Of a DNA stretch of 64,000 bases, positions 1-3,721 are shown in pieces. Under the pieces are notes generated by a model that saw nothing but the letters and a program-made list of their open reading frames with translations, made no database searches and had not been told where the DNA came from. The stretch is taken from contig CAVXYC010000001.1 in NCBI GenBank assembly GCA_963765765.1, positions 320,001 through 384,000 of the forward strand, in the 5' to 3' direction. Position numbers and translations under genes: made by a program. This stretch comes from an uncultured Chloroflexia bacterium (GTDB lineage Bacteria > Chloroflexota > UBA6077 > JACCZL01). Within the stretch, counting starts at the first letter, position 1. Every line of letters starts with the position of its first letter.

Positions 1-473
1 GCGTGGGTTTGGCTTCAAAATCACCTGCAACCCTCAACGTCAAACGGAAAACGGTCGTTTTCAGGAGGCTCCGATCAGCCCGTGGGCGGCCGATAAAATC
101 CGTTTAGGGGCCGGATGTGCCAATCTTGCCTCCTCTCCGCATAGCCCGGTGGTTGCTCTCAGGGTGCGGCAGAGCGTTCGCCGCGCCAGTCCTCCCGGCG
201 TCGGACGGCTAACCCGATCGTGGAAACACGACGACGCTCCCGATGGCACCGACCGAGGCTGCTGGCACAGTCCTTTCCGGCGCGCACGCGCTATCGTCAC
301 CGCATCGAGGGCGGCGATCAAAAAGCGGTTCCCCGGGTGCCAACGGCCAGAGCCGCTTTACTCAATCTCATTCGAATCCCATAACCCAGGAGTGGCGACA
401 ATTGTTCGGGTCCGAACGGTCGCAGGGCTGGTGTGCATGAGATCCGTAACCGACGAGGAGCGACAAAAGTTTG

Positions 474-677
474 ATGAATGACTCCGTGTGGACAGAACCC
501 GCGAGTGAGATCGATCCCGATGGGCGGATTCGAGCAGCGGTTCGCCGGCACCAGCTGACACCGGAGCAGGTGCCCGATTTCATCCACGCTTGCGCGGACC
601 TGGACGACATCTCCTGCTCGCCTGAACAGCTCAGGGCCTACGTCATGACGCTCGTCGACCACCCGCCGTTGGACTGA
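474..677 (+). CDS. small hypothetical protein
   Basis: ~67 aa ORF with GC3-rich codons; GAGGAG lies upstream; no recognised motif. Confidence 0.4.
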   Translation: MNDSVWTEPASEIDPDGRIRAAVRRHQLTPEQVPDFIHACADLDDISCSPEQLRAYVMTLVDHPPLD

Positions 678-792
678 TCGCTCTCGATATGGAACAGCAG
701 ACCCGGTTGCCAGCCCACGTCAGAGTGTGATCTCGACCACGTGACCTGGTCTCACCACGAACTCGGGTTGAGCGCCGGCTAGCACCTAGAAC

Positions 793-887
793 TCAGCGCG
801 AACCGCCCAGACCGGGCGTCAGCACACAGGCCACAACCGTCCGCTCATGCACACCGAGTCCCGCACAGCGCGGTGCACGACCTCCAT
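793..887 (-). pseudogene. IS110-family transposase N-terminal remnant
   Basis: After RBS GAGGAGG, restoring one base gives MEVVH(P)RCAGLGVHERTVVACVLTP, matching the IS110 start MEVVHxRCAGLDVHKxTVVAC; stops after about 30 codons. Confidence 0.75.
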
Positions 888-1140
888 ACCCATGCCTCCT
901 CAGGATCTGAGGGACCACGGGGCCGCCCAGGGCGACGTTCACGATTCTCTCGTGCGGGCTCGAAGCGCCAGGTACTGATGCCGATTGCCGGGCGGGGCCA
1001 ATCTCGGGAGCGGGATCGTGGCACCAGGCACGAACGGCCTGCCTGTCCCGGGTCCTCCACCGCTATCCTAGCGCCAGCGCACCGGCCTGTTGCCGCGCAT
1101 TTTCATCGGTGTTGGCGCGCCCCGGGCGCATGGGCATCTC
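888..1140 (-). mobile_element. IS110 non-coding end, putative bridge/seek RNA region
   Basis: Directly upstream of the IS110 remnant; two copies of CCTGG(T/C)GC-N2-CGA(T/G)CCCGC at 954-972 and 1010-1028; distal CATG...GATGAAAA segment. Confidence 0.6.
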
Positions 1141-1325
1141 GGCATGACAAGCGGCCGGCAGGGCGAAACGAGCCCAGCGAAAGTGTGTTCACGAGAGGTA
1201 CGAAGGATCTGCACGGACATCGCCGACAGCGATCATGCTGTGGGGTCGCTGGCTTCTGAGGTAGCACGAACACGTCTCCGCTGCCGTAAACGCTGTGACG
1301 CGAATGGAGCGACGCGCCTGGCTTA

Positions 1326-1568
1326 GTGCCGACGTCGCGGTACGACAATGCGGCCATGGACTGGCGAGATGAGCGTCTCCAGGAGCTCCTCCGCGCGGGC
1401 AAGCGCTATGACGAGGCCGAGCGGATCATCCGCGAGGAAGCTCTGGAGCTGAAGAAGCAGAGACGGCGCGAGCAACGTGGTAAACGCGCAGCAGCGGACC
1501 CGAGGGCGCGAATGCCTGCCGCAGACACAGTAGAAGAGCGAAGCGCTCCGGGCGAGGAGGATCGGTAA
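1326..1568 (+). CDS. small charged hypothetical protein
   Basis: 80 aa ORF with helical, charged composition. Confidence 0.4.
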   Translation: MPTSRYDNAAMDWRDERLQELLRAGKRYDEAERIIREEALELKKQRRREQRGKRAAADPRARMPAADTVEERSAPGEEDR

Positions 1569-1670
1569 TCCGGTCGGTCAGGGCACCGTCGTTCTTCTTC
1601 CGACCGGCGTCCTAGCCGCGCCGAGATGTACGCGGCTAACGTGCTTTCGACGACCGAGCGGCTTCGAGCC

Positions 1671-2097
1671 TCAGGAGACGCTGGATGCGGTCGGAGTACC
1701 CGGTGGCTTCACCAATGAGGCGACGATGCACAGCAGATCGTCCAGGTCGAACGGTTTGCACAGGAATGGTCCGGCGGCGAATGCACCGAATTCGCGCGTG
1801 AGCTGCTCAACGAGGGTCAGGCCGGCGGACATGGGCACGATGGGGATGCCGGGCCACAATCCGCGTTCCCGAAGATCGTGCAGGAGCTCGACCCCATTGC
1901 GGACCGGCATGCGGAGGTCCAAGAGCACGAGTGCCCGGTGGTGTGGCTTCGATCCGCCTCAGCGCCTCGACACCGTTGTCGGCTGTGTCGGTGGCGTAGC
2001 CCTCACTCTCCAGCACGTCGACTAACACCGATCGGATCGCAGCGTCATCGTCGACGACGAGGATCAGTGCGCCTCGGACGTCATCATCGAGGGCCAT
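1671..2097 (-). CDS. single-domain response regulator (frameshifted)
   Basis: ILVVDDD in ORF 1807..2097 continues as LLDLRMP...KPFDLDDL in ORF 1671..1928. Confidence 0.85.
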
Positions 2098-2388
2098 AGG
2101 TCGGCTTCACTCCACTCCAAAAGGTGCCAGGGGCGGCTGCGAAGGTATCCGGAAGGCGCGAGCTTTGTCAACCGATTAGGCGGATGCGATATCTGGTTAG
2201 ACCCGGCTCCGTTCGTCAACGAGGGCCGCTTTGCCATCTGAGTACATCACAGACATGTCATTCGGATGACGCGATCGTGCCAATGGGTATGACCAGATGG
2301 GTGGCCCTTGCTCCACCGATAAAGCGACTACTGGAACATCGAGCATGTGTAGACCAGCCGGCACGTCGTCTGCGAAAGCGATCCCGCC

Positions 2389-3363
2389 GTGCCGAGAATT
2401 GCTCAGACATTCGTTCGTGAACCAGAGTCGCTGACGCCCGAACAATACCAACGGCGGGTTACTCAGCTGGCCTGGGCGTACGTCGCCCTCTTTCTTTTCT
2501 CCCTTATTGGAGCGATATTGCTTGTCTGGCACGGCCAGCTCTTTGTCGGGCTCGCGCAGCGCTCTAATGTGGAGACACTGACGCTGGCTTTCTTTCTGGT
2601 GTTCTTTGCCTATATCGCGGTCATCAGCGCGCCGGGAGCCTGGGGCGCGCTGAGGGTGCTTCGATTCGATCTCGAACGCCATTGGGCAGGCGATCCCCTA
2701 TCGGTGGAGCAAAAGATGGCCGCGCGCCTCGGGCCGCCTCGCGCCGAAGCCCCGATCGCCGCGTTGAATCGTCTACTGGAACGAGACGGGATGGACGGCC
2801 AAGCATTCGATCTCGCGATCACGGACACCGCCGGCAGCCAGGGAAGCATCCGCGTCGATGGGGCGCAGATGACGCACTTTTCGAAATTCGGAGAGGGATC
2901 CAATTCCCTGCTCGCGTTCGTTGTGCATCAGGTCAATTCACTCATCACGCAGCGCGGCGAGCAGAGCCGGCTCGACGTGGTGGAGTGGCAAACCATTGAC
3001 GACGAAAGCGCCCAGAAGTACCTGAGCTCCGTGCACTTCGCCCGGAACCTCGAGCGCACGCTTAACGCCGGTGAGCTGTGGCCCAAAACCGTCTTAACTG
3101 GTGACGAGTGCTGGAGCTGGAGCGACGTCTCACGGCGGTCTGCCCTGCACTCCGATCGGAGGGTTTCCTGCCGGATTGGGAATTCAGCGGCGAGCACAAG
3201 CTGCCTATCATCCCCGAGCCGCTTGGCCTGGTATCCCTTCGGGCGTTCGGAGCGGCGCGTGGACCCACTGGCATCCATGGGATGCGCAGTCATCGTGGTT
3301 GTTGGCATTGTGATCATTCTCGGGCTCTTCATCCTGTTCCCACCATGGGTCCCGGGCGTGTGA
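2389..3363 (+). CDS. hypothetical membrane protein (probable compensating frameshifts ~3110-3240)
   Basis: Two N-terminal and one C-terminal hydrophobic helices; the alternative frame 3108.. reads more protein-like (LELERRL...LPIIPEPLG). Confidence 0.7.
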   Translation: MPRIAQTFVREPESLTPEQYQRRVTQLAWAYVALFLFSLIGAILLVWHGQLFVGLAQRSNVETLTLAFFLVFFAYIAVISAPGAWGALRVLRFDLERHWAGDPLSVEQKMAARLGPPRAEAPIAALNRLLERDGMDGQAFDLAITDTAGSQGSIRVDGAQMTHFSKFGEGSNSLLAFVVHQVNSLITQRGEQSRLDVVEWQTIDDESAQKYLSSVHFARNLERTLNAGELWPKTVLTGDECWSWSDVSRRSALHSDRRVSCRIGNSAASTSCLSSPSRLAWYPFGRSERRVDPLASMGCAVIVVVGIVIILGLFILFPPWVPGV

Positions 3364-3376
3364 GCGGAGTCGATCG

Positions 3377-3721
3377 TTGACAGTCCGGGGCATGATCCTG
3401 ATCGCTCTATTGGCGCTGATGAGCGTGGGCTGGTTGCTTCAGTGCACGGGTCCAAAGCCCGAGGTCCAGGCAGTGACCGTCCGCGAACCGGCCCAGCCGG
3501 GTCTCCCCTATCAAGTTGACGTTCAGGTGCGGAACACCTGGCGAGGGCACGGAGAGATGCAAGTTCAGGTTGAGCTGAATGACCAGGCGACTGATCGCCG
3601 CTATCAGGGACAGCAGAACGCCACGCTTGATGCGATGGAGTCGATTAATGTGGTTGTGCCCATCCACGCCCAGCCCGGCAACTACGAGCCGCGAGTGGAA
3701 GTGGTGTATCCGCCGCGATGA
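3377..3721 (+). CDS. secreted/anchored beta-sandwich hypothetical protein
   Basis: N-terminal hydrophobic segment, alternating beta pattern (YQVDVQVRN); follows the previous gene closely. Confidence 0.7.
   Translation: MTVRGMILIALLALMSVGWLLQCTGPKPEVQAVTVREPAQPGLPYQVDVQVRNTWRGHGEMQVQVELNDQATDRRYQGQQNATLDAMESINVVVPIHAQPGNYEPRVEVVYPPR

Follow-up and report, generated by a model that had tools for sequence, protein, structure and literature searches.

Truncated left end of an IS110-group insertion sequence with a still legible guide RNA gene in an uncultured Chloroflexia bacterium

We analysed a stretch of 64,000 nucleotides (the window) from an uncultured Chloroflexia bacterium whose assembly comprises 6.49 Mb in 33 contigs and is 91.84% complete. 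On the minus strand, window positions 1137-799 contain the left end of an IS110-group insertion sequence, that is, a 250 nt leader followed by about 30 recombinase codons. The leader, or left non-coding end (888..1137, minus strand), is recognised by its DNA identity to two loci of a related genome and houses the gene of a bridge RNA. It includes a ribosome-binding site GAGGAGG at 895..901, downstream of which an ATG is read at 887-885. The stump of the recombinase gene occupies 799..887 on the same strand and is delimited by protein similarity, DNA alignment and a contig from a close relative. The frame of the ATG encodes MEVVH and is then lost, with a stop after 22 codons. The -1 frame, an open reading frame at 793..942, reads ..RAPRCAGLGVHERTVVACVLTPGLGGSR*. 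Judged against the relatives, one nucleotide is deleted between 874 and 873, and a Gly codon (GGT, 855-853) replaces the first catalytic Asp of the homologue. The stump breaks off at 799|798.

A DNA search of the genomes of 40 relatives with the window yielded two loci, L017 and L020, in one genome of the same family (G009). Window positions 1150-812 align with them at 72-73% DNA identity (E 3.1e-40 and 2.4e-39; alignment A1). L017 is a full-length homologue with an open gene for a 424-aa protein starting MDVVHERCAGLDVHKRTVVACV. This protein contains the domains PF01548 (1.2e-28) and PF02371 (3.1e-25) and also matches NF033542, 'IS110 family RNA-guided transposase', with 290.6 bits. Both elements (L017/L022 and L020/L031) are complete and about 1.56 kb in length, their right end being TAGCGACACTCCTCCCGCCCCTATTTTCACGAGAG. 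It spans 35 nt in L017 and L020 (..CCCCTATTTTCACGAGAG), after which the remaining half of the respective REP-type target follows. The window shares with these elements the architecture, the REP-type target motif GTCATCCTGAG and the donor guide ACGAGAGAA. The upstream flank of L031 carries three tandem copies of CCCCCTGTCATCCTGAGCTCT, which are repeated left halves of its target.

When the 424-aa protein was compared with the whole 6.49-Mb assembly by tblastn, the stump matched residues 7-30 (75% identity, E 2e-4). The other matches were a 34%-identical fragment on contig C25 and a weak piece on contig C15, and nothing else was found in the assembly. The recombinase domains of the IS110 family are therefore absent from the window, where only the approximately 30 codons matching residues 7-30 are present, and judging by the sequence the locus is a fragment of an IS110 member rather than a functional member. 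No match to DEDD_Tnp_IS110, by which the sequence-only reading had proposed to identify the peptide, was obtained in Pfam searches with the 49-aa and 26-aa peptides of the stump, because the piece is too short. The homology follows from the DNA alignment and tblastn instead.

In two RNA libraries the bridge-RNA core is represented by contigs of close relatives (more than 90% identical by likeness bands). The RNA-library contig X19, from a close relative, differs from window 799-1038 at 17 positions and by one gap. It has one extra base behind 873, restoring the reading ..VHPRCAG.., and its codon opposite the GGT of the window is GAT (Asp; 854 C>T on the plus strand). Thus the deletion and the change from Asp to Gly are derived changes of the window copy. 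Below 799 the contig departs from the window, and its 18 loose letters continue in frame and resemble the 424-aa protein. Since X19 stops fitting there, the break lies at 799|798. The minus-strand ribosome-binding site with MEVVH, the one-nucleotide deletion, the loss of the catalytic Asp and the early truncation had all been proposed in the sequence-only reading, and the homologue and the relative's contig agree with it. The coding lesions fit neutral decay. The RNA-library contigs stem from relatives only, at other loci, and may reflect DNA carry-over; elements of the stump lineage are present in soil communities and perhaps expressed there.

The sequence upstream of the left end is repetitive. 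Positions 1138..1197 (minus strand) belong to a host repeat, family A, that has four other copies in the genome and ends in the left half of a REP-like hairpin unit. The four other copies end at ..TGTCATSCCGAG (..GTCATSCCGAG) and are followed by GGACGAGGGATCT-like sequence, not by the element. Homology to L017 and L020 in alignment A1 starts directly after ..TGTCATSCYGAG, which corresponds to 1138|1137 in the window. The left boundary is thus fixed by the end of the host repeat, independently of the guide match described below. Upstream of the target, positions 1195..1256 (minus strand) are the degenerate terminal part of another host repeat, the MITE/REP-like family B, recognised by repeat similarity and 82-84% identical to C14:63500, C2:182164 and C23:51063.

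The insertion target consists of the left half GTCATGCCG at 1148-1140 and the core dinucleotide AG at 1139-1138. This AG is seen at the left junction of the stump, the right junction being deleted; related loci have ..NNNNN-AG at both junctions. The target belongs to a REP-like family, GTCAT-SCY-GAGGSACGAR-RGS-ATCTC.CGGACATCGG, which sometimes lies inside longer repeats such as families A and B. The strict pattern GTCAT[CG]C[CT]GAGG[GC]ACG[AG][AG]G[GC]AT occurs 11 times in the genome. The arms of these units show compensating changes (ATCCC..GGGAT, ATGCC..GGCAT, ATCCT..AGGAT, ATGCT..AGCAT), and thus the loop of such a hairpin serves as the target. None of the family's 9 other genomes has a locus orthologous to window 1-3400, so the state before insertion is not reconstructable.

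Related loci were fetched from Chloroflexota/Chloroflexia, Streptomyces, other Actinomycetota, Bacillota and other groups (47 loci, 39-100% identity by best segment). Their left ends share a common plan. The junction is followed by a hairpin and then CACCA, the box GATGAAAAT, a variable stretch, GAGGUCG and a segment of 7-8 nt. Next come a hairpin (U)GGYGC..GAGCCCG, one base, a 9-mer, GGAC.., a further hairpin and GGCACCAC. A hairpin UGUUGC..GAGCACG, one base and another 9-mer then lead to the ribosome-binding site.

The bridge-RNA gene is recognisable in every part in the window, on the minus strand. A putative 5' hairpin (GCGC..GCGC) followed by CCAAC lies at 1111..1134 and corresponds to the hairpin-plus-CACCA block in the left-end alignment of 25 elements. 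The conserved box GATGAAAAT, a block of conserved columns in that alignment, lies at 1099..1107. The core of the bridge RNA occupies 933..1049, where it matches a covariance model of the family, R1, with 59.2 bits (E 1.4e-13) over model positions 1-117 of 117. By the position rule of the family, the right-target guide CGUGCCU, the reverse complement of AG+GCACG, is at 1026..1032. The distal hairpin of the target-binding loop (UGG.GC / UCCCG; helix 2) follows at 1010..1028, and the left-target guide, UCCCG plus the core AG plus AU, at 1001..1009. The distal hairpin of the donor-binding loop (UGG.GC / GCCCG; helix 4) is found at 954..972, with the left-donor guide, ACGAG plus the core AG plus AA, at 945..953; this guide is identical to that of L022. 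The hairpins are the two similar modules that had been noticed from the letters of the window, 1028-1010 and 972-954, which lie 56 nt apart and are alike at 15/19 positions.

The guides follow a simple logic across the family. The first 9-mer, after hairpin 1, repeats the left junction (5 nt, AG and 2 nt) at 8/9 or better in 23 of 24 full loci, a count that is partly circular, as the junctions of the other loci were picked by best guide match, whereas the junction of the window was fixed independently. The 7-mer after hairpin 2 repeats the right end (..ATTTTC-NNNNN-AG|flank) at 7/7 in 11/24 loci and at 6/7 or better behind TTC in 16/24, several of the misses being broken genes, so that the script searched the wrong place. 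The right-target guide, before hairpin 1, is the reverse complement of the core and the right flank. It fits its own flank with a mean of 6.09/7 (7/7 in 11/22, several near-identical Streptomyces and Bacillota elements included), versus a mean of 4.07/7 in 402 non-cognate pairs, two of which reach 7/7. The outliers are L022, which fits only at a shifted register (6/7), L026 (4/7) and L065 (3/7).

The left guide of the window, UCCCGAGAU, agrees with its own junction TGCCGAGAT (1144-1136) at 8/9. A comparison of the loops with the flanking junction had been suggested in the sequence-only reading, and it comes out in favour of a guide. The right guide CGUGCCU fits the right half of the REP-like units at 7/7 at C2:125613 and C20:685348; since the window's own right target is deleted, this match rests on paralogous repeats. 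Together, the left and right guides predict the target TCCCG-AG-GCACG. It agrees with the 11 REP-like units at 12/12 once (C20:685348), at 11/12 three times, at 10/12 six times and at 9/12 once. In the genome as a whole the predicted 12-nt target is not enriched at up to 2 mismatches (925 occurrences vs a mean of 1136 for 20 shuffled 12-mers), and genome-wide 12-nt matches are meaningful only within REP-like units.

The guide also varies together with its target. Among close relatives the left guide differs at one base (position 1006, UCCCGAG vs UCCUGAG), and both repeat variants are present in the genome. The same single base separates the left-target guide of L017/L022 and L020/L031 (UCCUGAG) from that of the window (UCCCGAG), in step with the repeat variant hit. 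Thus guide and target co-vary between close relatives, UCCCGAG and UCCUGAG answering to the CCCGAG and CCTGAG variants of the repeat. As for the donor, the right end of L022, ..TTTTCACGAGAG, matches the donor guide ACGAGAGAA, which is identical in L022 and the window, at 7/7; the right end of the window copy is lost. The donor matching the left-end RNA of the window is predicted to be ..TTTTCACGAG-AG-ATGCC... The right-donor guide could not be convincingly located in any member of the family.

A model of four helices, with a basal stem and a distal hairpin in each loop, was tested on an alignment of 21 sequences (A2) from which the window had been excluded. The helices pair in 90.4% of cells, versus 26-53% with slid partners, a contrast inflated by the origin of the model in these very sequences. 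Covariation reaches a score of 0.274, compared with 0.03-0.145 for slid partners, and 0/500 shuffles attain it. In total 9/17 pairs change on both sides. In helix 4, paired in 95.2% of cells, 4/5 pairs have such changes. A further long-range helix, UGGYGC/GCACCA, plausible in the window and in L022, was rejected: it pairs in 73.3% of cells, is equalled by 214/500 shuffles and shows no covariation.

The window score of 59.2 bits lies within the range of the training members of R1 (54-94 bits) and between those of two loci outside the training alignment (L068, 63.7; L060, 52.4). One of the 16 modelled pairs is marked as non-standard (GAUCCCG). No difference at this place is listed for the two close relatives, and the mismatch is probably common to both. 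Unlike both close relatives, the window has U for C in GGCACCAG (978), and the intact three-copy element L023 also has U. Folding of single sequences gave structures no better than those of shuffles for the left ends of the window (z -0.75) and L022 (z +0.43). RNAalifold applied to a plain MAFFT alignment of whole left ends recovered only parts of the structure, and an anchored alignment was needed. A search of window 400-1700 against Rfam at E<=10 returned nothing relevant, only a chance match to SNORD23 (a snoRNA) at E 7.1. The two-loop fold anticipated from the sequence is present by covariation in the family and by the full-length match to R1, while neither the single-sequence fold nor an Rfam family bears it out. 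The DNA homology, the guide-junction rule and the R1 score likewise agree with the earlier proposal of an IS110 non-coding end with two related loops of the bridge-RNA type.

The best described system of comparison is IS621. According to the available text of two reports (PMC11208160, PMC11208158), its left end encodes an RNA of about 177 nt with a 5' stem loop and two loops, each ordered as stem, left guide, stem loop and right guide; the core is CT and the targets are REP elements. The stump lineage has a recombinase of the same DEDD/Tnp family, as seen in the full-length homologue. Insofar as that text describes IS621, the lineage also resembles it in the long left end, whose RNA has a 5' hairpin and a pair of analogous loops, in the REP-type repeat targets and in the short right end. 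It differs from the same descriptions in core and guide order. The core is AG in the stump lineage (AA in its Bacillota branch) versus CT in IS621. In primary sequence the guide order is opposite, the right-half guide being 5' of the loop hairpin and the left-half guide, of the same sense, 3' of it. The right ends of the lineage finish in ..ATTTTC-NNNNN-AG, and the guide order is seen in the left ends L022-L068 as well as in window 1032-1001 and 972-945. The use of this right-guide-first order, the reverse of the published IS621 text, is a likelier proposition than the retention of orphan left ends for action in trans discussed below; published figures or supplements may already show such variants.

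In IS621, again by the text available, the promoter of the bridge RNA is rebuilt only across the joint of the right and left ends in the excised circle (PMC11208160). For integrated copies, weak read-through is described as the only transcription, and excision is abolished when a terminator is set upstream of the left end (PMC13626964). Compared with IS621, the window copy is devoid of the recombinase, the right end and the junction promoter. A second parallel is ISPpu9/ssr9 of Pseudomonas putida KT2440, reported as stand-alone RNA genes of the IS110 family that lie away from the transposase and have REP targets (PMC12288879). The ssr9 modules are reported to be located downstream of the transposase, to have both ends and to use the IS ends for moving as independent circles, whereas the stumps have no second end. 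This, together with the differing truncation points described below, argues that the stumps are deletion products and not modules.

R1 finds two further stumps in the same genome, at C16:31547-31664 and C23:117601-117725. The former (C16:31375-31760, plus strand) scores 35.8 bits and fits its own left junction at 8/9; about 15 codons of its gene precede the onset of decay. The latter (C23:117560-117790, minus strand; 52.7 bits) is cut inside the donor-binding loop and shows no distinct junction. Neither adjoins a recombinase gene, the stump on C16 being about 3 kb from an intact IS110 of another clade. The three stumps of the genome are mutually 41-50% identical and are thus separate old insertions.

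A scan of 39 genomes of the order with R1 gave 31 rows, of which 29 loci were examined after two partial matches of 68 nt in one genome (G022) had been dropped. The gene reads to at least residue 407 in 14 loci, five loci are cut by contig ends, and ten are stumps inside contigs. Three of the 29 loci come from an unpublished genome (G006), and none of these is a stump. In the same 39 genomes there are at least 11 C-terminal-only fragments of the family at 40% identity or higher (one in G006; counted irrespective of contig ends). Hence no bias towards left ends is seen, and selective retention of left ends was rejected.

A mini-element, in which a left end and a right end move without a gene, was likewise rejected. 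No right-end-like sequence was found downstream of any of the 10 stumps (best 7-8 of 10), and blastn of the L017 right end against window 1-3000 gave no match. Within 1400 nt downstream of the window stump there is no sequence resembling the right end (best 8/10), and the right end TTTCACGAGAG has no copy in the assembly.

One may ask if the truncation or the frameshift is an artefact of assembly or sequencing, the element being complete in the real genome. Other single-base frame breaks do occur in this assembly, namely in the split response-regulator gene at 1671-2097 and in one of three resident IS110 copies. No DNA contig matching the window spans 799|798 or 1137|1138, the uncovered parts being uninformative. 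However, the break is bordered on either side by unique sequence within a 398-kb contig, the change from Asp to Gly is a substitution and not a typical indel error, and further stumps, two from this genome plus seven from others in the order, are cut at different points. An artefact is thus very unlikely.

The truncation points of the stumps lie within the donor loop, at the start codon, at about codon 15 and at about codon 30. One orphan left end in another genome (L080, G023:C9:129540-129664), cut at about the start codon and with no recombinase gene after it, reaches 73.5 bits with R1, as high as complete elements. Such persistence, and that of three stumps from 41-50% identical lineages in one genome, could be taken to mean that the left-end fragment has been co-opted by the host in another role, that of a small regulatory RNA or structured leader, for instance. 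On the other hand, the window locus is not conserved in the 9 other genomes of the family, the truncation points differ, the single-sequence fold is no better than shuffles and no downstream gene is in register. Co-option thus appears extremely improbable, and the reading of the stump as a decaying remnant is preferred.

The only intact IS110 elements of the genome are three copies from a distant clade, at C16:27.2-29.2 kb, C30:283-285 kb and C32:94.5-96.5 kb, although the first of them has a frameshift. They encode a 320-aa recombinase with the N-terminus ..VVVGIDVAQAELVV, which matches the 424-aa protein by blastp only at E 0.008, and they have a different repeat, being inserted beside GCGGAAT(G/A)AATTCCGC hairpins. 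Their left ends contain two GGGGATAA-containing modules, presumably their own bridge RNA, and score 12.4 bits with R1 (E 0.22, on the opposite strand). The cognate recombinase is absent from the assembly, where tblastn with the 424-aa protein found residues 7-30 of the stump and the fragments on C25 and C15. With repeated IS copies often remaining unassembled and a completeness of 91.84%, the assembly may have failed to capture a cognate recombinase.

Neither a promoter-like nor a terminator-like site was found in window 600-2300. Upstream on the same strand lies a gene for a response-regulator receiver (1671-2097, minus strand), represented by two overlapping open reading frames that both match PF00072 (profile positions 1-43 and 46-109). 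The split is a frameshift, which marks a pseudogene or else stems from an indel in sequencing; C7:168291-168646 is a paralogous stretch of 74% identity. Because no terminator-like site was found, read-through from this gene (2097-1671) into the stump is possible. Since the right end is lost, the junction promoter cannot form and there is no donor site.

One alternative, considered here because the sequence-only reading had raised it, is that read-through or a weak promoter in the flank still yields the orphan bridge RNA, which then acts in trans with an unassembled or incoming cognate recombinase, steering insertions into REP-like repeats. An intact RNA is conceivable, as the RNA part shows no obvious damage apart from the one non-standard pair of 16. 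The core is of full length, scores like the loci outside the training alignment and retains 15/16 standard pairs; its target guides match host repeats, at 12/12 at C20:685348. Bridge RNA supplied in trans is reported to work for IS621 in the available text (PMC11208160), close relatives are found in soil RNA libraries, one of them with an intact frame and the Asp, and the incompleteness of the genome leaves room for a partner. However, the assembly holds no cognate recombinase, donor or right end, and the flank no promoter-like site, while a junction promoter, as described in that text, requires the right end that is lost. As any incoming element would itself supply a bridge RNA, the orphan would add nothing. 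The coding part is decaying, and in the order C-terminal-only fragments (at least 11 loci) are about as common as left-end stumps, so there is no sign of selective keeping. Action in trans is therefore unlikely. With an intact IS110 already resident in this genome, as had been suggested, it finds no support, given the distance of the resident copies (E 0.008; 12.4 bits with R1) and the missing recombinase, right end and promoter. The wider idea that orphan left ends are kept since their RNAs load onto incoming or unassembled sister recombinases, pre-programming their landing in REP-like repeats, is decidedly unlikely.

The stump is very probably an inert, slowly decaying relic of an IS110 insertion, left behind by ordinary deletion. 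An IS110-group element, with its bridge RNA as the guide, would have landed in a REP-like hairpin loop (..GTCATGCCG-AG | GCACGAGG..). Later, an ordinary deletion would have removed everything from about codon 30 onward, taking with it the remainder of the gene, the short right end and the right half of the repeat that had been the target. Positions 1137-799 remain, the left end with a bridge-RNA gene recognisable in every part: the 5' hairpin, a loop for target binding and one for donor binding, each loop with the putative right half-site guide 5' of a small hairpin and that for the left half-site 3' of it. Without the right end there would be no junction promoter and no donor, and without a cognate recombinase the RNA would have no partner. 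The data show the homology, the boundaries, the match of guides to junctions, the structure model and the lack of partners in the assembly; from these we infer the order of events and the lack of both transcription and function. A deletion guided by the bridge RNA itself was also considered as the cause of the break and rejected, as the joint ..GGTTCG|CGCTGAG.. does not contain the AG core and matches the donor guide at only 3/7.

The dead IS110 left end with its still legible guide RNA gene is a real but ordinary feature. The suggestion, made from the sequence, that the guide-RNA end has outlasted its recombinase is upheld, R1 matching at full length where only about 30 codons of the gene are left. 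If orphan RNAs of this kind acted in trans, this would be a new layer of IS110 biology; nothing here points that way. The value of the observation lies mostly in annotation: pipelines based on open reading frames miss such stumps, which may be mistaken for new non-coding RNAs. The stump records a past bridge-RNA-guided insertion into a host repeat family. Alignment A2 and model R1 provide a usable description of a bridge-RNA lineage common to elements of Chloroflexota, Streptomyces and Bacillota, and the AG (or AA) core and the guide order of this lineage could aid the mining of programmable recombinases.
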